A stretch of 64,000 nt of DNA from assembly GCA_963703315.1 (NCBI GenBank), contig OY969811.1, positions 320,001 through 384,000 on the forward strand, in the 5' to 3' direction. How positions within the stretch are numbered: the first letter of the stretch is position 1; each line of letters opens with the position of its first letter. A program made the position numbers and the translations under genes. The notes under the pieces were generated by a model. The model saw only the letters and a list, made by a program, of their open reading frames with translations. It searched no databases and was not told where the DNA came from. Positions 5,376 to 64,000 of the stretch are shown one piece after another. The DNA is from an uncultured cyanobacterium (lineage in GTDB: Bacteria > Cyanobacteriota > Cyanobacteriia > Pseudanabaenales > Pseudanabaenaceae).

Positions 5376-7463
5376 GTGGATTTTAGTCTTCGAGAACACA
5401 CACAAGCTGTATGGGAGCAAATTGAACAAACTTGGAAGGATAGTCAAAAACCTGAAGGGGAAAGATTTCTCGGTAATAATCGGTTTTCACCGAAATCGGT
5501 AGAAGCATTACTCGATGTTTTAGCGGAAGACTTGCCAAGAATTGGAGCATTGTCGATTGATGCCCTAAATGTGAAATGGGGCGATCGCCAAAATCGTAAT
5601 TGGGTGAAAATTATCACCTTTGTATTTTCAGAATATGCTTATCACAAAGAAACAGAAGGAGTTTTTTGGGAAAGCCTTTTACAAAGACTTAAGCTGCATA
5701 ACTCCCAAGGCGCAAAACAAACCTTTGCTAAAATCCTCAAGGAAGGATTCACTCTGCTTGGTGTTGCTACAGCTAAGGGAAGTGCCAAATACCTTTCTAC
5801 GCTTTATTTACAAAGTGGAATTCCTCAGCAAAATATTAAACATTTCACGGAATTAGTTGAAGATATTGCTGATCATTTAGGATGGTGGAATATTGCCTAT
5901 CGGTATGAGGCGATCGATCTCGCTCAGACGCTATATGACCGAGCAGTAGAGAAATATCCAGAGCGATTGACGCTCAAACGTTTCTTAAAAAATAGTTGTC
6001 AAGATGATAAATCTGAGCAGGCTGATGTCGAGCCGATCGCTGGGAATATCCTCAAATATATTGCCGCGATCGCCTTAGAAATAGAGCGTAGAAGACTAAA
6101 TCCCAAAAAATTTGCAGATCAACAGGCTAGAGAGCTTTATCTACAAGGTTTTGGACTATCGAATTATTTCTTTCTGAGAGATTGGGATAAATTAATTTCG
6201 GTTTTAACTCCTAAGACAGTCTCGCCCCATAAAGCCAATCAGTTTATTCGCCAAAATAAACGTGAGCTTAAATTGCGTCTCGATCCTCTGGAGCTAAATT
6301 TACAGCTTGTTTTACCAGCTCAAAGACTCTGGCAAAAAGAATGGAAAACGTTAGGCGGTAGCCCTTGTCAGATATCTGAAACAAACTGGAAATCGATCAT
6401 CCCCTATCCAGATAGTTTAGAAATTCCCGAACTTTCTACTAATTTGACTGTCTTGAGCGATCGCTGGACATGGCATCTTCAAGATGGAACCCAGCAAGAT
6501 TTGCTAGAGTGGCATGGTGAGGGAATTGTAGATAGTTTCCCCCTATTAGTTTTTGATGCAGAGACAGGCGATCGCCTAATATTAAACGCATTAAACACAG
6601 ATGCTCCTCAAATTGTTGGTATCAATGAAGTTGTTTGCTATTTCCCGAAAGCGATAAACTTACAATTGAGTACAGAAGTTGAAGTTACCGATGATTGTTT
6701 TCCTTGTTTAATCGCTGATTGGCAAGCAAAGCAAATTCGACTCACTGGGCGATCGGCTTCTTTCTCTTTAGTCAGTGAAGAGGTGAATATAACAGTACAA
6801 TGGCAATCATTAAGTAGCGATCAGCCTATCGTGAGAGGATTACAAATCAAAGGGAAGCAAGCAACTTATTTAGAAACGCCACAAATTTACTATCCTTTGA
6901 ATGATTCTTCTGTCGAGTATATTCGTATTCAAATTGAGAATGTGGATAAACAAGCTACTCTTACACATCCAGATGCAGAGATTAAAATACTTGCCACAAA
7001 TGAGAAGTGGCAGCAGGTTTCTTTAAGTCAATGGGTTAAGGACACTGGAACTTATGAAGTGAAGCTTTGGGATAAGAATTTTTACTGGTCAACATCTTTT
7101 GTAATTAAGCAAAGTTATCAGGCTTTACCAAATCCTTATTGTTCTCACGTTCAGATTCAGAATACTAAGCAAGACAATGTATTTGCTTCGTTACCCATCC
7201 AATGCAAGGATAAGGAGGATTTTTGGAAAGAAGAAATCAAGATTGAAGGTTTATGGACATTTGAACCTGTCAATTTTGTTCTATCTAACAATAAAGAGAA
7301 TCAAACTTTCAGCTATTCTGTCCAAGCGGATCAGACGGGTTGCTTACATCTATCACTGACATCTTTGCGAGAAGCCTTACCCCAAAGCGATCGCTATTTC
7401 TTAGATTGGATAAGATTTGGAAACTATGAGCGACTGCTAGAAACAGTAAAACCTAAGAATTAG
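5376..7463 (+). CDS. Hypothetical protein, 695 aa; possibly DruH/STY4851-like defence-associated
   Basis: Long ORF; helical N-terminus with FW...KYLSTLYLQSGIP motif followed by a beta-rich region. The family link is recall only. Confidence 0.6.
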   Translation: MDFSLREHTQAVWEQIEQTWKDSQKPEGERFLGNNRFSPKSVEALLDVLAEDLPRIGALSIDALNVKWGDRQNRNWVKIITFVFSEYAYHKETEGVFWESLLQRLKLHNSQGAKQTFAKILKEGFTLLGVATAKGSAKYLSTLYLQSGIPQQNIKHFTELVEDIADHLGWWNIAYRYEAIDLAQTLYDRAVEKYPERLTLKRFLKNSCQDDKSEQADVEPIAGNILKYIAAIALEIERRRLNPKKFADQQARELYLQGFGLSNYFFLRDWDKLISVLTPKTVSPHKANQFIRQNKRELKLRLDPLELNLQLVLPAQRLWQKEWKTLGGSPCQISETNWKSIIPYPDSLEIPELSTNLTVLSDRWTWHLQDGTQQDLLEWHGEGIVDSFPLLVFDAETGDRLILNALNTDAPQIVGINEVVCYFPKAINLQLSTEVEVTDDCFPCLIADWQAKQIRLTGRSASFSLVSEEVNITVQWQSLSSDQPIVRGLQIKGKQATYLETPQIYYPLNDSSVEYIRIQIENVDKQATLTHPDAEIKILATNEKWQQVSLSQWVKDTGTYEVKLWDKNFYWSTSFVIKQSYQALPNPYCSHVQIQNTKQDNVFASLPIQCKDKEDFWKEEIKIEGLWTFEPVNFVLSNNKENQTFSYSVQADQTGCLHLSLTSLREALPQSDRYFLDWIRFGNYERLLETVKPKN

Positions 7464-10576: not shown

Positions 10577-10869
10577 TTAATAGCTTTGGCTATTACTACT
10601 GCTCTCATTCATTTTTTATTTTTTGCAAAAGCTACTGCGATCGCTTGATTTCGGTAGCTTTTGTGTTTTGTGGATACTCGCTGGCGCGAGTCCCACAGTC
10701 AGCAAAAGCTAATGCGATCGCTTGATTTCAGTAGCTTTGTATTAGCAGCTATGGCAGGCTACAGCCATAAGAGAGTGGCGGCGCGAAGCGCCGCCACTCT
10801 CTTATGGTTTTTATATAGGCTTTGGTAATGACTCTCATAGCTTTAGCGAATCTACCCTAAGTGGTATGG

Positions 10870-46034: not shown

Positions 46035-46243
46035 TAAGTAGATAGGCATAAGTAAACTTAAAACCTAGAAGCTTGTACCGCCCGCTACGCGGGCGGTACA
46101 AGCTCTGGTTTTGGGTTTTAACTATGCTGAGCTACTTAGTCAAGCAAGTTAAGACATAAAACCCAAAAGAGAGTTGCGGCGCTTCGCGCCGCAACTCTCT
46201 TTTGGGTTTTGGGTTTGTCCTAACATAACTGACTAAAGCTATA
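46035..46243. repeat. Two adjacent MITE-like palindromic elements
   Basis: TAAGTAG...CTACTTA unit 46035-46138, then a GGCGCTTCGCGCC-centred unit ending GCTATA. Confidence 0.6.
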
Positions 46244-51835: not shown

Positions 51836-52996
51836 TTAGTTTTGGTATAAATAAAGGTCGGCAAGTCTTTGGGCTGCTTGAGCTTGCTGATTTGCCAAAC
51901 TTTTAGGAGCAAGAACGATCGCATTATCCATAAAGCGATTGACCCAGCGACTAAATTCACTTAGCGATCGCTCTGGTAGCGAAATACTGTAATCGATATA
52001 ATCAGGCTTCCCTCTTCGATCAATCAATTGAGAAATATGTCTTTTTTCTCCCTCTTCGATAAAGGCAATTACAGGTGCGAAAAAACGTATCTTAACTTGA
52101 ATATATTCTAGAGTTCCTGCAAGCTCTCTAACTTGGTCAGATGGTTCACCGAGAAACAAACCCCAACCTTTTTTAAACAGATTCATTGCCACAGTTAAAC
52201 TTGTTTTTTGGAGATCCGTTCCTCTAGGCTGATTAACGAATTGGATCTGGTCAGTGAAGCGATCGATCCGTTCGATTTCTAAATGACCATTATCGACGTA
52301 CTCATAGAGCAAATACCAAGCAATATCGTGATAAATCAATTGCAATGGGAAGACTTGTAAATATCCGATTTTATGGCTATAGGGATCGGTATAACGATAG
52401 ATGGTGATTGCTTGCCCGATCGCGATCGCTTCTTCAACTTGATCTAAACAATGATAAAGGTTGTAGCGATTTTTCTTGATATCTAGCATTTCATCAAGGT
52501 CAGTGTAGATAATCGCTCGATCTATTTGCGATCGCACGGGATAGAGATAGTCTGTGGATTCTAATATTTGTTTGCCGCGCAGTTTCTTTTCGAGTTCTTG
52601 GTAAATACGGATCGCTTGTGGCGATCGCTGATATTTTGCCATAGATGCTAGGGCGTTGAGCGCTACTTGCAAGTCTTTAAATGACATCACTCCTGTTCCT
52701 AAGAAGTAGCCCCAACGATAAATTCGCTTTTCTAAAAGACCATATTTACGGAGTGTAACTAAGTCTTTGCGAAGGGTGGGAATGGAATATTTAGTTAAGG
52801 AAATATTGTATTGTTGGGCAACTTCATAAACTTTTGCTTGAACGGCTTCTAGGGATTCATGGGCAGATTGGGAGTTATTGCCGATGCGATCTGGGCAGCC
52901 GATGCCAGGGTAATGAATGAAAGTGGCGATGAGGAGAAGGAGTCGCTCAAAGGCTTGGCGATCGCTGTAGGGATGTAAGTTACTAGTCTTCGGCAT
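51836..52996 (-). CDS. WYL-domain transcriptional regulator, divergent from the cas operon
   Basis: N-terminal wHTH (TLRKDL); PLQLIYHDIAWYLL; ERIDR. Confidence 0.9.
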   Translation of the reverse strand: MPKTSNLHPYSDRQAFERLLLLIATFIHYPGIGCPDRIGNNSQSAHESLEAVQAKVYEVAQQYNISLTKYSIPTLRKDLVTLRKYGLLEKRIYRWGYFLGTGVMSFKDLQVALNALASMAKYQRSPQAIRIYQELEKKLRGKQILESTDYLYPVRSQIDRAIIYTDLDEMLDIKKNRYNLYHCLDQVEEAIAIGQAITIYRYTDPYSHKIGYLQVFPLQLIYHDIAWYLLYEYVDNGHLEIERIDRFTDQIQFVNQPRGTDLQKTSLTVAMNLFKKGWGLFLGEPSDQVRELAGTLEYIQVKIRFFAPVIAFIEEGEKRHISQLIDRRGKPDYIDYSISLPERSLSEFSRWVNRFMDNAIVLAPKSLANQQAQAAQRLADLYLYQN

Positions 52997-53149: not shown

Positions 53150-54751
53150 ATGTGTTTGGGAGGTAAAGCGATCGCGGTCATGGATGTACTAACACAAGAA
53201 AAATCCCAAACGAGTGAATCTGAGAGTGGGAAATATACGGTGATTACTTTTGCTCCTGTGCAAGGCTTTATCGAGAAGTCCCGTAAGTTGCGCGATCTCT
53301 ATGGTGCATCGCAAATTCTCTCGTACTTAAGTTGGAAGATCGTTTGTGCGGCTAACAGTAAAAACTGTGAAGTGATTTCACCTGCGATCGCAATCGATAA
53401 TGCCTCTGAGATGGCTAATGTTGATATTGTGCAGGGTATGCCCAATCGAATTTTGATATTGGGTGATTTCTCGCATAACGATGCTCAGAAAGCTTTAACA
53501 GAAGGCTGGAAAGAAATTGTGACGGCTTGCCGTAGTTGGCTGAGAGATAATTTGCAAATTGATGATGAGGGCTGGTTTAACTCTTGGACAAGATGGCAAA
53601 TTCACGCTTGGGAAGTGTTTTGGGGTAGTGGTCAAAGTATTGAGTTTGCAATGCGCGATTTGGAAACTCGGAAGTTGCGGCGGGCTTGGACTGTTCCGAA
53701 TTGGAATGGTGAAAGTTCGAGTTTGTCGGGGCATGATGCGATCGCACATCCAAGTATGGATAATTTAGGAACGAATGAAGTAGAAATCAAAAAGTTTTAC
53801 AAGAGGCTTGCCGAAGTTCTCGATCCTTCTGGTGATGAGAACGATCGCGCTTATATCAATGAAAATGAGCGATTGAGTATTCCTGAATTAATCAAAAGAT
53901 TGGTTACTTATGAGGCGATCGCTAAAAAAATCCATCGCGATCTTTACGCGCCGACTTTTCGAGAAGTGCTTCGCAAAGATGACAAATCTGGTGCGACCTA
54001 TTGGACTGGTTGGTTTATGGGTGACGGCGATAAGGTTGGCGATCACCTCAAGAGGCTTACAGATAATGCTAGCGTCACTCAATTTAGCCAGTCTCTGAGA
54101 GCTTGGGGTAAGCAATTTCAAACAGATTTTGATAAAAAAGGTCGTGTAGTTTATGCGGGAGGAGATGATTTTCTCGGTGTGATGTATGGGGACAAACAGA
54201 CTCCTAAATTAGATAGCCGTGAAGTAATTGAATGGTTGCTGAATTTGCGTCATAGTTGGGAAAAAGGAAACCTTGGGATTACGCTCAGTGTGGGTTTTGT
54301 GTGGGCGGGGCATAGTGTACCGCAGCGTGATGTGTTGCAGCATTGCCGCGAGGCTGAGAAGTTAGCTAAGAATTTAGGGCGCGATCGCGTGACGATTCGG
54401 GTTCTGTTTAACAATGGGCAGTTTGTGCAGTGGACTACGCCTTGGAAATATTTGGAATGGTTAGCAGATTATCGCGATCGCAATGACAATACTGGCAAAG
54501 ATGCGAATTGGAGCCATGTATATACCGATCTGGCACAGCTCAAAGCTCGTCATGCGATTCCACCTGCTACTGCTGAAACAGCTAATGATGTGATCGCGCT
54601 TGAGTTGTTTGGGTTGTATTTCGGCAAAGATAAGCAGGAAACGCTCTCTCAACAACGTGGAAAAATTACAGGATCTGAAGATTCCAAATCAATGATTGAA
54701 TGGATTGACGGCATGATTAAAGTGGGGTGGCAGTTATGTTCAAATTCCTAA
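53150..54751 (+). CDS. cas10: Cas10/Cmr2, short HD-less form, type III-B variant (alternative start 53180)
   Basis: PVQGFIEKSRKLRDLYGASQILS, MGDGDKVG, VYAGGDD, TLSVG. Confidence 0.92.
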   Translation: MCLGGKAIAVMDVLTQEKSQTSESESGKYTVITFAPVQGFIEKSRKLRDLYGASQILSYLSWKIVCAANSKNCEVISPAIAIDNASEMANVDIVQGMPNRILILGDFSHNDAQKALTEGWKEIVTACRSWLRDNLQIDDEGWFNSWTRWQIHAWEVFWGSGQSIEFAMRDLETRKLRRAWTVPNWNGESSSLSGHDAIAHPSMDNLGTNEVEIKKFYKRLAEVLDPSGDENDRAYINENERLSIPELIKRLVTYEAIAKKIHRDLYAPTFREVLRKDDKSGATYWTGWFMGDGDKVGDHLKRLTDNASVTQFSQSLRAWGKQFQTDFDKKGRVVYAGGDDFLGVMYGDKQTPKLDSREVIEWLLNLRHSWEKGNLGITLSVGFVWAGHSVPQRDVLQHCREAEKLAKNLGRDRVTIRVLFNNGQFVQWTTPWKYLEWLADYRDRNDNTGKDANWSHVYTDLAQLKARHAIPPATAETANDVIALELFGLYFGKDKQETLSQQRGKITGSEDSKSMIEWIDGMIKVGWQLCSNS

Positions 54752-55803
54752 TTGTGATACGTCCTTTGGGATTGCTTTATGGCAGCGCTGGCGCATTTCT
54801 GTCTCCTGAAAACTTAGTTGGACGCTCTGGCGCAAAATTTCCACCTGATGCGGGAACGCTTTCGGGATTGATTTTGGCGACAAATCAAGAGCAGAAGTTT
54901 ACCGAGCATCAAGAGCTAAAAACTAATCTGGCTGTAGCTGGTGCTTTTTGGGCAGAGTCAGATCATCCTGAAAACTTTTTTGTGCCAATTCCTCGATCGC
55001 GCATTGTCGGCGAGAAGAATAAGGATTTTGATGAATGGGCGCTAATCAATCACAAATGGGAGCGTCAACATCCCGATCTCGATCCTGAATATCAATGGCA
55101 GAGTATCAACTCTTGGCACAAGCAAACCCCACAGCTAAAGCGTCCTGAAAAAGGCAAGTGGAATGATGTTGGTAAAACTCCTTGGGAATTTATGCCGATT
55201 TTGCATCCCTATCTCAAAGATGATGAGAAACACGTCCGCGATCGCGATGGATTGTTTTTAGAGAATGCTGTGCAGATGCGTGAAGATAGCTGTTTGGTGT
55301 ATCTCTCGACGCATAAATTGCCTGATGGTTGGTATCGCTTTGGTGGAGAAAATCACATTGTGGAAATCACTAGTCAAGCAATTACAGAGCATAGTTCGAT
55401 CTGCAAGTTACTGAAGCAGAAAATTGGGCGGAGTTTTGCGCTGATTACGCCTGCGGTATGGGGAAGCAATAATCTATCAACTCGCTATCCTAACGATGTG
55501 CGCTTTAGCAACAAGCGTCCTGAGATGCTGACCGATCGCCCTGAGCCTTGGCGTTATCGTGTGGGTAAGGGTGAGGCGCAAAACAAACGCGCCAGTAAGT
55601 TGAGCATTGGTCGCTATGCTGTGCCTGCGGGAACTGTCTATGTGGTCAAACATCCCCTCGATCTCACTTGGTGGGACTTCCCGCCTGAGTGGTTTGCGTC
55701 GGGTGAGGGGCTACCGTTGCGGCAGTTTGGTTGTGGGTTGTGCTTACCTGTGGAAATCAAAATCGAGCCTAAAGTTGAGCCTAAAGCTGACCAAAAAAAT
55801 TAA
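54736..55803 (+). CDS. cmr3: Cmr3 (Cas5 family)
   Basis: FPPDAGT, YRFGGE, LITPA, RYAVPAGTVY, terminal G-loop; follows cas10. Confidence 0.88.
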   Translation: MFKFLIVIRPLGLLYGSAGAFLSPENLVGRSGAKFPPDAGTLSGLILATNQEQKFTEHQELKTNLAVAGAFWAESDHPENFFVPIPRSRIVGEKNKDFDEWALINHKWERQHPDLDPEYQWQSINSWHKQTPQLKRPEKGKWNDVGKTPWEFMPILHPYLKDDEKHVRDRDGLFLENAVQMREDSCLVYLSTHKLPDGWYRFGGENHIVEITSQAITEHSSICKLLKQKIGRSFALITPAVWGSNNLSTRYPNDVRFSNKRPEMLTDRPEPWRYRVGKGEAQNKRASKLSIGRYAVPAGTVYVVKHPLDLTWWDFPPEWFASGEGLPLRQFGCGLCLPVEIKIEPKVEPKADQKN

Positions 55804-55821
55804 ACAAAAAGGAGAGGATTA

Positions 55822-56652
55822 ATGTACAAAAAAGCCTATGGAATTATTGAAACCCTTGCGCCTTTGCATGTTGGAGCTGCCGCAGGTGAGGAGTCTGGTA
55901 ATCTCAATTTGATTTTTCGCGATCAATTTACGCAGACGGGGATTATCGCAGGGAGTTCGATTCGCGGACGCTTTCGGGCAGATATGCGCGAGACGGAAAA
56001 GGGTTTAGAGAATACATGGTACGGACATGAATCTGTGGAGGGTAGACCTGATGGTGGGACTACGGAAGCGATCGTCAAATTTGAATATGCTTCGCTGGTT
56101 TGGTTGCCTGTATTTTGTCCAGGACAGCCTGTCGTTTGGATTAGTTGCCCAAGATTGCTTAAGCGATACAAACTGATTACTGGTTGCGATGCGCCTATTC
56201 CCAAACCTTACACGGCGGCGAAAACTCTGCGGGGTCGTCAAATTAGCGATCGCGGTACTGCTAAACAAATCCTATTTTTCAACCTTGGATTTATGGAAAT
56301 CGAGCAGCAAATCGAAGCTGAAGCAATGCAGAAATGGATTCCTACTGGTGCAGATCTGGCGGTTGAGAGTTTAGTGGTGGTTGGCGATAACGATATTGCG
56401 ATGTTGCATGACATGGCTTTGTATCGCCAGAGTCGCATCAAGATGATGGACGACATGAAAAAGGTAGATGGAGGAGCATTTTTTAATGTGGAGGCTTTGC
56501 CAGAGGGAAGCGTTTTAATATTTCCGATCGCTTTGAAGCAATCGGGCTGGAAACCTTTTGTTAATGGTGATTCGCAGGATATGTATTTTGGTGGTTTGGA
56601 GTCGGTTGGCTTTGGTCGTTGTAATGTCACACTTGCAGGAGAGTATCAGTAA
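55822..56652 (+). CDS. cmr4: Cmr4 (Cas7 family RAMP)
   Basis: PLHVG, GSSIRGRFR, EALPEG, GGLESVGFG. Confidence 0.9.
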   Translation: MYKKAYGIIETLAPLHVGAAAGEESGNLNLIFRDQFTQTGIIAGSSIRGRFRADMRETEKGLENTWYGHESVEGRPDGGTTEAIVKFEYASLVWLPVFCPGQPVVWISCPRLLKRYKLITGCDAPIPKPYTAAKTLRGRQISDRGTAKQILFFNLGFMEIEQQIEAEAMQKWIPTGADLAVESLVVVGDNDIAMLHDMALYRQSRIKMMDDMKKVDGGAFFNVEALPEGSVLIFPIALKQSGWKPFVNGDSQDMYFGGLESVGFGRCNVTLAGEYQ

Positions 56653-57056
56653 TGGCTTGGAAAACCTATGATTTGGATCGCATTGCTCAGAAGTTAGTTT
56701 TAGATGCGAAAGAACGCGATAAAGATTCTTTGGGACAAGCGTTTAAGATGCGTGTAGCTGTAGCTTATGGCTTGGAGCGCTTCTGGGGTGAGCATTTGCG
56801 CTTGCAAGGTAAGAAAGCAGATGAGCATAAAGCTAAGTATTGGAAAGAGACTTGGGATCAGCTTGTAGCAGTAATGCTAAAAGCTGGGGTAAAAATCCCC
56901 AACGATCCTGTGCAATCAGACAATGAGAAAGCTGTAAGGTCTATGGCAGAGAAACTTTGGGAAATAGACATCCAAGATCAACGGGTGGCGATCGCTGTGC
57001 TAACGCAGCTTTGTGACTGTCTGGTTTGGTGGACTCAGCGCTATAAGAAAAAATAG
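56652..57056 (+). CDS. cmr5: Cmr5/Cas11 small subunit
   Basis: Small helical protein at the expected operon position, translationally coupled to cmr4. Confidence 0.7.
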   Translation: MAWKTYDLDRIAQKLVLDAKERDKDSLGQAFKMRVAVAYGLERFWGEHLRLQGKKADEHKAKYWKETWDQLVAVMLKAGVKIPNDPVQSDNEKAVRSMAEKLWEIDIQDQRVAIAVLTQLCDCLVWWTQRYKKK

Positions 57057-57074
57057 TTTTTAGGGACTAAAAAG

Positions 57075-58784
57075 ATGTCAAATATTCCCGATGCTTATAG
57101 AAAAGTGCCGATGATGTTTCAGGCGCAAACGAATGGGCGCTGTCAATTGCAACGTCTCGATCCAGATCGTAAAAAGGATGGCGATTCGCAAGATGCTGAG
57201 ATCTGGTGTGAGGAGTGGACAAGTGAAACTTATCCTGTTGCGCCGATATTTGAGGAGCCAGTCAAAAAGCGAGAATATACGATTAGTTGGCGATTTGTGA
57301 CAAATTCGGGTCAGGATGATGGCGTGATTCGTCCTGTCATTGGTGCGTCTGGCTATCCCTTTTACCCCGGTTCGAGTATGAAGGGAGCTTTTCGTCAGGC
57401 TTGCAATCGGTTATTTAGCGATCGCCTTGGTAAATATTGCGGACAGGAGATTTCTAAGGGAGATTTCTCCCCAGGGATTTTGCGCTTTCATGGTGGTTAT
57501 CCTGTAGATAGCAGTTGGACTGATGGGTTAGTTGATCTCATTCATCCACAGCAAAAGTTACAGGTAATGAATAGTGAAAAAGAAGGAGCCAAAATCCAAA
57601 TTTCACTCTATCAACCCACAATTCAATTTGGGATTTCGGCTTCGGAGGAGCTTGATGAATCTGAGTGGGAGGAGATCTGGCAGATTTGGGAAGCGGCGCT
57701 GGGGCGTGGGATTGGTTGTCGGGTTTCCGCAGGTTATGGTCATCGCGATCAATTAAAGGGTGAGTTGTTGTATCCGCCGCATCTGTTGAAAGGGCAAGGA
57801 ATGGCATCTAAGCGCTTAGATGAATCTGGCGAGTTTCGTCCCAATATTTTTCGGGCGGCGATTCGTGGTCATGCGTTACGGATTTTTGGTGGTTTGACGG
57901 ATGCAGAGACAGCAAAGCGAGAAGTCGAGAGAATTTTTGGCGGTGTTTCAGGGCATGGTGTATGGGGCTTATTGATGATGAACTTTGTGACAACTAGCCT
58001 TGATGAGCAAATGTTTGGCAATGAACCTAGCTATCAAGTAGAAGGAGAACTAGGCTGGTTACTATCACAAGATCTTTCAGAAGAACGTAAAACTGCTTTA
58101 AAAAATCTAATCCTACATCTAAATCAATTTGCCATGATCTTTGGTGGTTTTGGTAAATCATGGCGCAGAGCCGATCATCGGTTATTTTATGAGAAATATT
58201 ATAGGCAGCATAATAAAAAATATCTGATCGGCTGTCATTGGGAATGGGAAGGTGAATTTCGCCGTGATGTTAAGGTTTATAACCTCAGTCATATTTCTGC
58301 TTTTTTAAATCAGTTGCAAAATGTAGCTAAAATCTGGCTAAAACTACAAGGCGTAAAGATTGGAACAAGCTATGCAGATGATTGGCGAGAATCATGGCAC
58401 GTTGACAATGTGCAGGTTTGGGGCAGGCGTGCAGATGATGATTTAGATTCTGAAGCTATTTATTGGTTACATGGAGATTATCAAGATGCAGATAAAAGGA
58501 TGCGTATTCCTGCATTATCTATTAAGCAATCATCTGTTACAGGAGGGCAAATTGGGCAACGACAAATACAGATCGGGCGACTGTGGCATCGAATGTATCC
58601 TTTAAAAAAGCAAGTTCGAGATCCTAATGATTCAACAAAATGGCTTGTAAAAGATACTAATCAATATATTGAACTATTGACAATTTTCCCTGATAAATCT
58701 GACAAATGCTTAGATTTTCTCGATTTCTTGGCTGATGATAGTCCGTTTGAACAGCTATGGGGAAAGCCTTGGGAAATAGAATAG
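57075..58784 (+). CDS. Double-RAMP protein (Cmr6-Cmr1 fusion)
   Basis: First RAMP: YPGSSMKGAFR...GIGCRVSAGYG; second RAMP: FRAAIR...FGG...GGFGKSWRR. Confidence 0.8.
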   Translation: MSNIPDAYRKVPMMFQAQTNGRCQLQRLDPDRKKDGDSQDAEIWCEEWTSETYPVAPIFEEPVKKREYTISWRFVTNSGQDDGVIRPVIGASGYPFYPGSSMKGAFRQACNRLFSDRLGKYCGQEISKGDFSPGILRFHGGYPVDSSWTDGLVDLIHPQQKLQVMNSEKEGAKIQISLYQPTIQFGISASEELDESEWEEIWQIWEAALGRGIGCRVSAGYGHRDQLKGELLYPPHLLKGQGMASKRLDESGEFRPNIFRAAIRGHALRIFGGLTDAETAKREVERIFGGVSGHGVWGLLMMNFVTTSLDEQMFGNEPSYQVEGELGWLLSQDLSEERKTALKNLILHLNQFAMIFGGFGKSWRRADHRLFYEKYYRQHNKKYLIGCHWEWEGEFRRDVKVYNLSHISAFLNQLQNVAKIWLKLQGVKIGTSYADDWRESWHVDNVQVWGRRADDDLDSEAIYWLHGDYQDADKRMRIPALSIKQSSVTGGQIGQRQIQIGRLWHRMYPLKKQVRDPNDSTKWLVKDTNQYIELLTIFPDKSDKCLDFLDFLADDSPFEQLWGKPWEIE

Positions 58785-58862
58785 TTGATGAAGATGATGG
58801 GTTACGCTGTCGCTAACCCATCCTACGGTTGATTCACTATAGAGAAAGAAGACTATAAAACT

Positions 58863-59468
58863 ATGGCTTACAGTGATTTTACGGTTGAACAAATTATAGA
58901 TAAGTTCTCTCTCGATTTTGTTGAGCAGGACTTGTTTGCATCTTCAAAAAGTACGATTCAGGCTAGTAGTTGGTTATTGGAAACCCTTGCGAAGGGTAAG
59001 AAATTTGCGCTCACGACTAGCAGCGAAAAGGCAAAATCTGAGTTTATTATTGCGCCAATTTTGTTGGAAGTAGAGGCGCATTTTTCGACACAGTTGGCTA
59101 TTTATTCGGGCAAAAACCTTGATAGCGATCGCGAGGCGGGACTGGTAGGAGAATGTGATTTTATTCTTGGTAAGGGTACGACTTCAACTTTTATTAGCAC
59201 GCCAATTATGACGATCGTTGAGGCTAAGCGCGATAACTTGGAGAATGGGTTAGGGCAATGTGCTGCTCAAATGTATGGGGCAATTCGCTATAACCAAAAG
59301 CATGGTGAAACCTTGGATAAGGTCTATGGATGTGTGACGACGGGCAATTTATGGCAGTTTTTGAAGTTAGAAAATAAGTTGCTGACTCTTGATAGTAATG
59401 TTTTCTATCTCAATGAGCTTGATCGGATTTTGAGTTGTTTTAGTACGATCATCACTGAGTTTCTGTAG
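58863..59468 (+). CDS. PD-(D/E)xK-like (HsdR_N-like) cyanobacterial protein
   Basis: GECDF, IVEAK, GLGQC, YGCVTTG.LWQF. Confidence 0.7.
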   Translation: MAYSDFTVEQIIDKFSLDFVEQDLFASSKSTIQASSWLLETLAKGKKFALTTSSEKAKSEFIIAPILLEVEAHFSTQLAIYSGKNLDSDREAGLVGECDFILGKGTTSTFISTPIMTIVEAKRDNLENGLGQCAAQMYGAIRYNQKHGETLDKVYGCVTTGNLWQFLKLENKLLTLDSNVFYLNELDRILSCFSTIITEFL

Positions 59469-59499
59469 TCTTTTTTGTAAATCTTGGAGCTTAATCAAG

Positions 59500-60894
59500 A
59501 TGTCTGTAGTTTGGATTGTGACGACGGGTAATAGTGATGTCAAGCTGACAGATGATACTGGCTCGACACATTTGCTAGATAAAAAAGGTGAGCAGTTATA
59601 TTACTGTGGATTTTCTGCATCAGACGATAGTGATGATAGTGATGTCACACTGTTTACTTTGCCTGCAAGGGTAATGGGAATTAGCTATGGTGATGCAATT
59701 GGAACACATTGGGATCGTTTGACTTTTCCTTTGTTGGATGGATTTTGTCAGGAATTTAAGACTGAGAAAAGGAATAAGCCCGATCGCATTATTGTTTTGC
59801 TGACCGATCAGGAGGCGATTTTTGATGATTACAGTCGAGGTGATGCTGCTTGTCCTTATTGGCAGGATACATATACGCTTCAGCCAATTTTGAAGCATTA
59901 TTTTTCGCAAGTGTTTGGTGAAAAATTTGCTAATGAAAAGATTGAATTTTCGGTTTTGAAGCCGCAACAGGGGGCGGATGGGTTAGATGATTGGGATGCG
60001 ACATTGACGCTAGTAAAGGCGGAGTTGGCGAGGTGGGAAGAAAATAAGTGGATTTCTAAGAGCGATCGCGTGATTGTTAGTCATCAGGCGGGGACTCCTG
60101 CAATTTCTTCGGCAGTACAGTTAACTTGTTTGATTCGCTTTGGTAAAAAGGTGGAATTTCTGGTTAGCAGTGAGTTAGATCCAGATAGGACTAAGTTTTT
60201 AAAGGGTTCGTCCTATTTTGAGACGTTGCAATTTAAGAAGTTAGAGGATTTGCTAGCAAGGGATGATTATGCTGGGGTTGCTAGTGTTGTGGACAGTCTG
60301 GGTTTAGAAGATTCTGTGCTGAAGGTGAAGTTGGATCATTTACTCGAACTGGCGAAGTTGTGGAATGCAGCTAAGTTTGATGAGTTTGCTAACAGGATGG
60401 AATTGGTGACCTCTAGTCGAGTTAGGGAATGGTGGTGGAAGGGCTATGAGATGGCTTATCTGGCTGTGGTGAGGATGAAAAATGGTGATCCAACTGAGGC
60501 GCTTTTTCATAGTGTGAGAGCGATCGAGGGGTTGATTTGTGAATGGGCGATTCATAAAGAAAGGCGATCGGATTTGTATGGAAAGAGTTTGTATGATTTG
60601 TTCAAATTAAGAAACCCTGAGTCTAATAGTCTGCCGATTAAGGTTGTTTGGTCAAAGTTAGCTTCTGTCAGAAATAAGCTATTCCATACTTTGCGAGGTA
60701 TTTCGGCTGAGGAGGTTTGGGATGCTTGGGATGAAAACTCAAAATCTGACTGGGAAAATAGAATGTTTACTTGTCTTAATTTTGTAACTAGGAATGATAG
60801 ATCTCAAGAGTTTAAATCTCTGAAAGATGCTAGTTTGATGTCACAGGTGCATAAGGATTTGGAGGAAGTGATTAAGGCGATCGCTTCTTATTAG
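59500..60894 (+). CDS. Putative CARF-HEPN type III effector (Csx1/Csm6-like)
   Basis: Rossmann-like start WIVTTGNSD, VSHQAGTPAISSA; C-terminal RAIE and RNKLFH (RxxxxH). Confidence 0.7.
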   Translation: MSVVWIVTTGNSDVKLTDDTGSTHLLDKKGEQLYYCGFSASDDSDDSDVTLFTLPARVMGISYGDAIGTHWDRLTFPLLDGFCQEFKTEKRNKPDRIIVLLTDQEAIFDDYSRGDAACPYWQDTYTLQPILKHYFSQVFGEKFANEKIEFSVLKPQQGADGLDDWDATLTLVKAELARWEENKWISKSDRVIVSHQAGTPAISSAVQLTCLIRFGKKVEFLVSSELDPDRTKFLKGSSYFETLQFKKLEDLLARDDYAGVASVVDSLGLEDSVLKVKLDHLLELAKLWNAAKFDEFANRMELVTSSRVREWWWKGYEMAYLAVVRMKNGDPTEALFHSVRAIEGLICEWAIHKERRSDLYGKSLYDLFKLRNPESNSLPIKVVWSKLASVRNKLFHTLRGISAEEVWDAWDENSKSDWENRMFTCLNFVTRNDRSQEFKSLKDASLMSQVHKDLEEVIKAIASY

Positions 60895-60930: not shown

Positions 60931-63900
60931 GTTTCCTACTCTATAGGGGACGCGATCAATTGGAAACAATGGTTGGTAAGTAGACTGTGTGATAGTAGAC
61001 AATCTCCTATACGCTAGGAGATGCGATCAATTGGAAACGCAAAGGTAAAGGTTGCTAATGTTGCGGGTGCTGATCTCCTACTCGCTAGGGGACGCGATCA
61101 ATTGGAAACCCAACTTTAAACACTTGGACATTTTCCAATGTAGCGATTCTCCTACTCGCTAGGGGACGCGATCAATTGGAAACCAGATGACATCATCTGA
61201 ACCAAATCTTCATCAAAGAACTTATCTCCTACTCGCTGGGGGACGCGATCGATTGGAAACATAAAAGCAAGGGCAGCAGCAATCAAAGCAGGCATATTTG
61301 TTCTCCTACTCGCTAGGGGACGCGATCAATTGGAAACCACTGTTTAGGCTGCCTAGCATCACATACACCTCGTTTTCCCTACTCGTTAGGGGACGCGATC
61401 AATTGGAAACGTAAATTCTTCCAACGTTTGACCGAACTTGTCGTCAATCCCCTACTCGCTAGGGGATGCGATCGATTGGAAACCTAATCTCACGATGCTC
61501 TACCGCTTCAAATAAGCAGTTTTCCCCTACTCGCTAGGGGACGCGATCAATTGGAAACCCCTGCGATTGATGGATAGTCAGCGCGAAAGCATATCGCATC
61601 CCCTACTCGCTAGGGGACGCGATCAATTGAAAACTCAATAATCAAAGTCTTTTAGTGATGAGTGAGATTGTTCCCCTACTTGCTAGGGGACGCGATCGAT
61701 TGGAAACGACATGTAATCATGTCCTGCTTTATACTTTTTATGATCTCCTACTCGCTAGGGGACGCGATCGATTGGAAAAACGGCTATACATTGCTCTGCA
61801 TGGTTCATGATAGGAATCTCCTACTCGCTAGGGGGCGCGATCGATTGGAAACTACCATAATGGCTTGGCTCCGTATTTGTGTGTCATTTCCCCTACTCGC
61901 TAGGGGATGCGATCAATTGGAAATGCTCCTCACTTCTGATGTTCCCAGACGTAAAACCAATCTCCTACTCGCTAGGGGACGCGATCAATTGGAAACAGCC
62001 ACGCTAGGGAATCTGGTTTTGTTGTGCCTTTTGGTCTCTCCTACTCGCTAGGGGTCGCGATCAATTGGAAACCCGCCTATTACTCGACGAATAACATTTG
62101 TCGCAACAAAAAAGTTCCCTACACGCTAGGGAACGCGATCAATTGGAAACACGTAGCCCTGTATGATGTTTGTGATTACTGGGTCATTAATCCCCTACTC
62201 GCTAGGGGATGCGATCGATTGGAAACTGACAACGCTTAATCGCTTGGTATGTCTGCTCAAAACTATTCTCCTACTTGTAAGGGGACGTGATCAATTGGAA
62301 ACTGAAACCAAGTGAGAGTGATGCTTTATGATGGTTTGTCTCCTACTCGCTAGGGGATGCGATCGATTGGAAACTGATGAGCTACCCGATCTTGGCTGTA
62401 AAAATCACCCTTCTCCTACTCGCTAGGAGACGAGATCGATTGGAAATGTCAGGTACTTGCCCGAGGAAGTCACCTTACCCTTGTCTCCTACTCGCGAGGG
62501 GACGCGATCGATTGGAAATGTCCAACAGAGAAAAGTAAAGTAAAGTTCGGATACATCTCCTACTCGTTAGGGGACGCGATCGATTGGAAATTGAACTTCA
62601 ACCATGTCGCACTCAACCCAAGCGCAAACCGATTTGTCTCCTACTCGCTAGGGGACGCGATCGATTGGAAACATCTCACCGTGCTTGCGACACCATTCCG
62701 AGAGTTGATCCCCTACTCGCTAGGGGACGCGATCGATTGGAAACAACTGAGCTTTTAGAAATACAATGTCGTTGATCGATATTCTCCTACTCGCTAGGGG
62801 ATGCGATCGATTGGAAACTGAGGATTATATCTTTCTTCAGTATCAGTTTCTTCAATCTCCTACTCGCTAGGGGATGCGATCGATTGGAAACCGATCAACC
62901 GCGATCGCCTCCTGAGTCCGACGGGCTTCTCCTACTCGTTAGGGGACGCGATCGATTGGAAACACTTTGCTGTATAGGGAATAGGTGAGAAAGCTGTAAA
63001 TCCCCTACTCGCTAGGGGACGCGATCAATTGGAAACGCATACTTGTCTAGGATCGGTGGGATGTATTTCCAAGTCTCCTACTCGCTAGGGGACGCGATCG
63101 ATTGGAAACGCATGACGGCTTTACGATTCGATAAAGTCTTTTCGTTCTCCTACTCGCTAGGGGACGCGATCGATTGGAAACGTTTTTATAATGTCTGAAT
63201 GTCTATGAGTCATTTTTTATCCCCTACTCGCTAGGGGACGAGATCGATTGGAAACCCCGCAAAGTTAATCCACTGAAATCACTCAATTTTGTTTCCTACT
63301 CGTTAGGGGACGCGATCGATTGGAAACCCTTTGGTTGTGAAAACTGCATTTCGTGACGTGGTCTCCCCTACTCGCTAGGGGACGCGATCGATTGGAAACC
63401 GATCTAGCCATGATTGTTTGATCACAAACTCGCAAATCTCCTACACGCTAGGGGACGCGATCGATTGGAAACACCCATTGGAGCAGCGCTTTAAATGTGT
63501 CGAGATCTTTCTCCTACTCGCTAGGGGACGCGATCGATTGGAAACTGTTCAGCCTTGTAAGCCCAAGCAGTAAGCTTGTTTCTCCTACTTGCTAGGGGAC
63601 GTGATCAATTGGAAACTACTTAGTTTCAAGCGCCTTGCCTGTGCGGGTGATTTTTCTCCTACTCGCTAGGGGACGCGATCGATTGGAAACGGTGGATTTG
63701 AGTAACGTAATAATAGAATAGTTTCCAACTTAGTCTCCTACTCGCTAGGGGACGCGATCGATTGGAAACTTGATCTCGATAATACGGTCGATCCCGTCAA
63801 TAGAAGTCTCCTACTCGTTAGGGGACGCGATCGATTGGAAACCCCTCGGCATCAAGGGTACTGAATCCGTAGACATCACTCTCCTACTCGCTAGGGGACG

Positions 63901-64000
63901 CGATCGATTGGAAACTTTGCTTGAGTTGTAGCGGTCAAATAATCGGTATTATCCCCTACTCGCTAGGGGACGCGATCGATTGGAAACCCGTCTCTCCCAG
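60931..64000 (+). CRISPR. CRISPR array, 42 repeats counted, continues beyond the window; consensus (N)TCTCCTACTCGCTAGGGGACGCGATCGATTGGAAAC
   Basis: Regular 36-37-nt repeats with about 34-44-nt spacers that appear unique; 3' end ATTGGAAAC. Confidence 0.98.

Follow-up and report, generated by a model that had tools for sequence, protein, structure and literature searches.

A cyanobacterial type III-B CRISPR lineage lacking the Cas10 HD nuclease and the Cmr4 catalytic aspartate: a plausible but unproven RNA sensor and signal generator

We describe here a CRISPR locus in a stretch of 64,000 nucleotides (the window; GenBank assembly GCA_963703315.1, contig OY969811.1, positions 320,001 to 384,000) from an uncultured cyanobacterium of the Pseudanabaenaceae. 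The locus, a type III-B variant of cyanobacteria, comprises, by listing of open reading frames (ORFs) and by scans with the Pfam, NCBIfam and PADLOC families, genes for a WYL-domain protein, Cas10, Cmr3, Cmr4, Cmr5, a Cmr6–Cmr1 fusion, a PD-(D/E)xK-family protein and a CARF–HEPN protein, together with a CRISPR array. The genome is a single contig, 99.67% complete, in which this locus is the sole CRISPR system found and holds the only two RAMP genes; its closest relatives by Cmr4 (93–97% identity) are Pseudanabaena and Tumidithrix records. A sequence-only reading of the operon had held that its Cas10 lacks the HD nuclease and the Zn-finger cysteines and keeps GGDD, that its Cmr4 has no Asp between LHVG and IFRD, and that a CARF–HEPN-like gene ends the operon; each of these points is borne out by the analysis below.

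The Cas10/Cmr2 gene (53150–54751, plus strand, as are all features below except the WYL gene; the start may lie at 53180) encodes 533 residues with intact Palm1 and Palm2. Its Palm1 motif starts near residue 29, too close to the N-terminus for an HD domain to fit in front of it, and the Pfam, NCBIfam and PADLOC scans matched the protein to no HD family. Both palm motifs are present, GDGD at residues 291–294 and the cyclase motif GGDD at residues 337–340 (54158–54169). A clade profile matches the solved Cas10 DtCmr2 (9arw_A) at E 1e-28, and the same alignment places the serine/proline-rich motifs ESSSLSG and LSIPELIKR on its first (CSICG) and second (LCGVCFTKR) Zn-finger halves, leaving a Zn-finger remnant (53711–53899) in which all four cysteines are replaced. 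Of 72 related loci with a Cas10 match, 64 yielded ORFs of 450 aa or more; GGDD is kept in 63 of these 64 and CxxC occurs anywhere in only one, and among the 60 with a located Palm1 start, none has an HD dipeptide upstream of it. Since 9arw_A is also HD-less, an HD-less Cas10 is not unusual by itself. A split HD gene upstream of cas10 was ruled out, that space being occupied by the divergent WYL gene.

Cmr4, the Cas7 backbone subunit (55822–56652, 276 aa), matches TIGR02580 at E 2e-18, and its AlphaFold2 model (mean pLDDT 81.5) finds solved Cmr4 chains as best matches (E about 1e-14); the PDB copy searched holds no solved structure of this Cmr4 lineage or of the CRISPR3 type introduced below. 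The catalytic loop H16–D34 (55867–55923) is remodelled. It is one residue shorter than the canonical segment and has no Asp between H16 and R33, the canonical Asp of the D-x-P motif aligning with N29 in gapped profile alignments or with L28 (55903–55905) by ungapped count from the invariant Arg; upstream lie E23 and E24 (55888–55893) and N27 (55900–55902). The catalytic Asp is invariant in a 59-sequence canonical Cmr4 alignment and in 68 of 78 full-length distant homologues lies on the N-terminal side of the invariant Arg at a distance of exactly five residues (the other ten comprise five CRISPR3-type sequences, two with Glu, two with Asn and one unparsed), and its absence here is therefore not chance. 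Neither L28 nor N29 is a carboxylate, and in Pyrococcus furiosus Cmr4 even the Asp-to-Asn change D26N abolishes cleavage (PMC7192623).

This loss extends far beyond the window. Among 80 related loci with 55–97% Cmr4 identity, one truncated ORF was dropped, and in all 79 remaining homologues the H16–R33 loop is without Asp; E23, E24 and N27 are invariant in this set, and L28 and N29 are kept in 78 and 77. A strain-specific mutation or sequencing error was ruled out as the cause because the loss is lineage-wide. The Cmr4 of Synechocystis sp. PCC 6803 CRISPR3 likewise carries a loop, TQEGNLLGIAR, without the catalytic Asp, and none of 119 CRISPR3-type sequences (120 best homologues, one of them a fragment lacking the region) has Asp at that position. 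A third cyanobacterial lineage (102 matches, 95 examined after short ones were dropped) has the loop SRGNNNPI[FY]R, in which Asn takes the place of the Asp in 81 of 95 sequences and none has Asp there; GGDD is kept in the four of its Cas10s that were read. Four loci of this lineage (L122–L125) have Cas10s of about 740–760 aa with an N-terminal extension in which no HD motif is visible, GGDD kept and CARF-like neighbours. Long Cas10s of the CRISPR3-type branch are also often without the HD dipeptide (L127, L129–L132), and further loci may therefore be without both nucleases.

Of 401 genomes of the phylum searched with TIGR02580, 117 gave a match, and 30 top-scoring loci of about 210 matches were examined. 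All 26 from the host's own class lack the Asp, carry Gly-Asn and have a Gly-to-Arg span one residue shorter (L094 read by eye), whereas the four from other classes are canonical and keep the Asp. In sister lineages the loop has a single Glu, a single Asp at a more upstream position or no acid at all, the last being the case in three of the 26. Gly-Asn is the sole loop feature common to all three lineages, and the shared-derived columns of the two largest include Gly-Asn-Leu and R202-Q203. In a quick Cmr4 tree of 78 rows the three Asp-less lineages group together (SH-aLRT 92, with a long-branch warning), which is consistent with one early loss but is not proof of it. To judge from these alignments, the Asp loss is old and branch-wide rather than decay; it probably happened a single time, at an early stage of the cyanobacterial III-B branch, with HD loss a separate feature of the present lineage.

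The operon ends in the CARF–HEPN gene (59500–60894, 464 aa, Csx1-like), which matches the PADLOC CARF1-HEPN model at E 5.6e-131 and whose R391-x4-H396 motif (60670–60687) has both R391 and H396 kept in 26 of 26 relatives. The protein is about 65 aa shorter within the HEPN region than most close relatives and divergent in its C-terminal part, which by sequence comparison suggests module exchange. CARF or SAVED genes occur in 28 of the 32 related loci flanked by at least 3 kb on both sides (CARF–HEPN 19, CARF–TM 7, CARF–RelE 4, SAVED–TM 3, CARF–nuclease 2); neighbour labels rest on 33 representatives of clusters plus 116 of the 204 unlabelled neighbours, which makes these effector counts lower bounds. 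The effector classes of the related loci suggest cA4 as the probable messenger. Csx1 is activated by cA4, and self-limiting CARF domains are known (PMC12409355).

The remaining subunits complete a type III-B set of Cas10/Cmr2, Cmr3, Cmr4, Cmr5, Cmr6 and Cmr1, the last two fused. Cmr3, of the Cas5 group (54727–55803), matches Pfam Cas_Cmr3 at E 3e-6 and PADLOC at E 1e-11; Cmr5, the Cas11 small subunit (56652–57056), matches PADLOC at E 1e-64; and the 569-aa fusion (57075–58784; PADLOC E 3e-205) has two RAMP halves, the N-terminal one matching Cmr6 and the C-terminal one assigned to Cmr1 by RAMP fold and position, there being no direct Cmr1 match. PADLOC already holds close models for this Cas10, Cmr5 and fusion. 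The PD-(D/E)xK-family gene that follows (58863–59468; PADLOC E 6e-47) is probably a passenger; a role as dedicated effector was rejected on genomic grounds, as it has nine paralogues elsewhere in the genome and is patchily present.

The CRISPR array starts 37 bp after the CARF–HEPN gene and occupies 60932–64000 of the window, with 42 repeats there and 56 in total, ending at window-equivalent position 65010. Its 36-nt repeats have a 5' hairpin and the conserved 3' end GGAAAC, as expected of III-Bv, and belong to the CRISPR3 family, the single-stranded part being less AU-rich than in CRISPR3. Of the 53 distinct spacers, 40 score better as antisense to a coding strand under a host codon model (p=0.0003; in the controls the share was 50% among random genomic 36-mers and 80% among known coding ones), a bias that supports, at the level of codon statistics, mRNA targeting and transcription of the array from the plus strand. 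A search of 50,697 phage records with the in-window array (3071 nt) gave no match, and against the host genome the spacers gave chance-level matches of 16–21 nt only, with no protospacer found. After the last good repeat and ahead of a degenerate one comes an 853-bp block (window-equivalent 65011–65900) with two small ORFs that resemble XisH/XisI. The cas6 profiles PF10040 and TIGR01877 found no match in the genome, with positive controls, and no labelled neighbour of the related loci matched Cas6.

By gene content the locus classifies as type III-B, with the DxD and GGDD palm motifs of that type and without the HD nuclease that is optional in it; by the fusion, the lack of cas6 and the repeat family it falls in the III-Bv branch. 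The likeness of its layout to Synechocystis CRISPR3, drawn in the sequence-only reading, stands in part. CRISPR3 likewise has a Cmr1–Cmr6 fusion and no cas6 (PMC6546367), the same repeat family with 5' hairpin and GGAAAC end, an Asp-less Gly-Asn Cmr4 loop and a cysteine-free Zn-finger region. It belongs, however, to a sister lineage: its Cmr4 is about 30% identical to the one here, its Cas10 has 979 aa and an N-terminal HD motif as against 533 aa without one (a property of the CRISPR3 model system rather than a stated definition of III-Bv), and it has cas1, cas2, csx18, Csx3-AAA and Csx15/20-type genes (PMC9676260 for part of these), none of which was found here. In CRISPR3, processing by RNase E yields 13–14 nt handles.

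Canonical III-B Cmr complexes (P. furiosus, Saccharolobus islandicus) and HD-less Cas10s such as 9arw_A share with our locus the subunit set, the folds and the route from cyclic oligoadenylate (cOA) to Csx1; in contrast, canonical Cmr keeps the D-x-P motif and has Cmr1 and Cmr6 as separate proteins, and 9arw_A keeps its Zn finger. Closer in composition, the III-B clusters 3–5 of Microcystis aeruginosa FACHB-524 encode five-subunit complexes with a Cmr1–6 fusion, of which the long-Cas10 cluster alone was tested, Asp-based Cmr4 cleavage being assumed there without assay (PMC11855584). Natural Asp-less Cas7 proteins occur in types VII, III-G and III-H, where type VII pairs them with Cas14 and III-G and III-H pair them with an HD domain and a dead palm (PMC12669027). 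The present locus reverses the III-G/III-H arrangement, with a live palm and no HD domain; it also differs from type VII, since Cas10 is present and none of the eight genes matches a Cas14 β-CASP nuclease, although type VII, too, is without adaptation genes and shows variable repeats (PMC12669027). A functional parallel is engineered rather than natural, and of type III-A: RNase-dead TtCsm (Csm3-D34A) binds RNA and keeps signalling, yielding an about threefold more sensitive sensor (PMC8157118). In listings and abstracts, our literature search found no paper reporting Asp loss or an RNA-cleavage assay for cyanobacterial III-B, though Behler 2018 or a thesis could mention it, and a term search of the available portions of three Makarova 2025 supplements did not return 'Cmr4'.

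The absence of the HD domain and of the Cmr4 Asp, the intact palm motifs and CARF–HEPN, and the antisense spacers together lead us to read the locus as an RNA sensor that defends through cOA alone, its compact five-gene complex having no nuclease of its own, a reading we hold to be probable on balance. As an interpretation built on sequence it is plausible but unproven, and we infer both the absence of RNA cleavage and sustained signalling. Host RNases E and J would produce the crRNAs, by analogy with Synechocystis CRISPR3; the complex would bind invader mRNA without slicing it at 6-nt intervals; Cas10 would then synthesise cOA, most likely cA4; and the CARF–HEPN RNase would degrade RNA non-specifically, leading to dormancy or death. 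Shut-off could come from host RNases or target release combined with self-limiting cA4 cleavage by the CARF domain. For the wider branch, we lean slightly towards the view that the main III-B branch in oxygenic cyanobacteria, the long-studied Synechocystis CRISPR3 included, naturally gave up target-RNA slicing, with the lineage described here also DNase-less and a pure RNA-triggered messenger synthase.

Several observations weigh against the sensor reading. In S. islandicus, a Cmr4 without RNase activity leads to autoimmunity, dormancy or death (PMC9368842), and in P. furiosus such a mutant could not be made (PMC7192623), so that plain loss of slicing should be costly. A dedicated ring nuclease was not found in the genome: the control of the Csx3 search was silent, and an added tblastn search with 38 accessory proteins of related loci returned no further CARF, SAVED, Csx3 or Csx15/20-type gene and matched only HD-domain paralogues. 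Csx3 itself is present in only three of the 32 well-flanked loci. Residues 19–29 of the Cmr4 model fall below pLDDT 50 and are disordered, and a loop that is invariant within each lineage and has shared derived residues could form a new active site. The Microcystis complex, finally, gives 10-fold phage protection without Csx1, with the caveat that its Cas10 is long; Csx1 there raises protection about 10-fold (PMC11855584). CRISPR3, which has an HD motif, acts against targets in either orientation and is not impaired by deletion of single accessory genes (PMC6546367).

The strongest alternative, tentative and in our judgement unlikely, is that Cmr4 still slices through a remodelled centre formed by N27, a loop Glu such as E23 or E24 and the thumb residues R202/Q203, which would make this an otherwise ordinary HD-less III-B system with unusual chemistry. 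The invariance of E23, E24 and N27, the Gly-Asn common to the three lineages, the R202-Q203 pair shared by two of them and the toxicity of RNase-dead Cmr4 elsewhere all agree with it, and the crRNA lengths of 42 and 48 nt are compatible with a normal Cmr4 filament (PMC12464536). Yet the lineages share no acidic residue at a fixed position, and invariance alone says little where 74 of 276 Cmr4 positions are invariant in the clade alignment. As for the earlier suggestion that the Glu pair may be an alternative catalytic centre, the pair is invariant in this lineage alone, and E24 aligns with a Glu of P. furiosus Cmr4, which has D26 as well; for both reasons the pair makes a weak candidate as substitute centre.

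We give little credence to a second alternative, in which target cleavage has moved to the Cmr6–Cmr1 fusion or to a recruited host RNase E or J, much as type VII relies on Cas14. The fusion does have four invariant histidines (H266, H368, H466 and H505), and RNases E and J already act on CRISPR3 RNA (PMC12464536). Its model (pLDDT 84), however, gives only Cas7-group folds among the matches listed, the conserved-His motifs are not visible by eye in the Synechocystis fusion, and no core gene matched a β-CASP or other RNase family in the Pfam, NCBIfam and PADLOC scans. The Asp-Asp of its Cmr6 half aligns with the 'DE' of Archaeoglobus fulgidus Cmr6, a subunit not known to cut.

Least probable of all is a decaying or silent remnant, for which speak the lack of cas1 and cas2 matches in the genome (profile searches with positive controls), the highly polymorphic repeats and two duplicated spacers, and against which stand eight intact ORFs, motifs kept across many genera and, as weak evidence lacking a DNA control, RNA-library contigs of related strains that cover the operon (assembled contigs from 4 of 13 listed runs, one across 54284–58201, which do not show strand, level or crRNA ends). 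The array does have its oddities: the commonest 37-mer of the repeats recurs only four times in 57, and spacers 43 and 46 are identical and spacers 18 and 53 nearly so, though no cas1 or cas2 was found.

Around the operon, the divergent WYL/WCX-domain protein (51836–52996, minus strand, 386 aa; PADLOC WYL E 1e-38, weak Pfam WYL/WCX), which we take to be a probable regulator, is present in 15 of the 32 well-flanked related loci. In three loci (L037, L039, L043) a stand-alone HD_4 gene of RelA/SpoT-type hydrolases adjoins an HTH-WYL gene, directly 5' of cas10 in L039 and L043, and possibly encodes a messenger-degrading enzyme. Six loci (L045, L046, L048, L065, L076, L079) have an E2-like and ThiF/E1 gene pair upstream of cas10, often accompanied by an NYN gene and a small 'CorA-like' match, and a family of small proteins, each about 110 aa long and without a Pfam or PADLOC match, lies in or adjoins the operon in five (L010, L011, L022, L033 and L054, there at 6325–6666). 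Elsewhere in the window, palindromic repeats of about 40–50 nt (families D4, D5 and D8) are scattered intergenically over 853–49800, for example at 10765–10802 and 46163–46200.

The striking part of these results is a property of a whole lineage, not of this window alone. The current view is that type III signalling is timed by Cas7, whose cutting of the target brings it to a stop, and removal of this cleavage is toxic in two archaeal models; a widespread natural lineage that is Asp-less, and here also HD-less, turns the question of whether slicing is needed into one that can be tested in tractable cyanobacteria. Either outcome would be informative, pointing to a cleavage-independent off-switch or to a new Cas7 active site. 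If the main branch has indeed given up slicing, its off-switch would not rely on target cutting; if the complex does cut, its Cas7 chemistry would dispense with an Asp that has proved essential in the type III backbones tested. RNA detection and RNA binding, for which dead mutants are now engineered, are further uses to which a compact complex that by nature does not cut would be suited.

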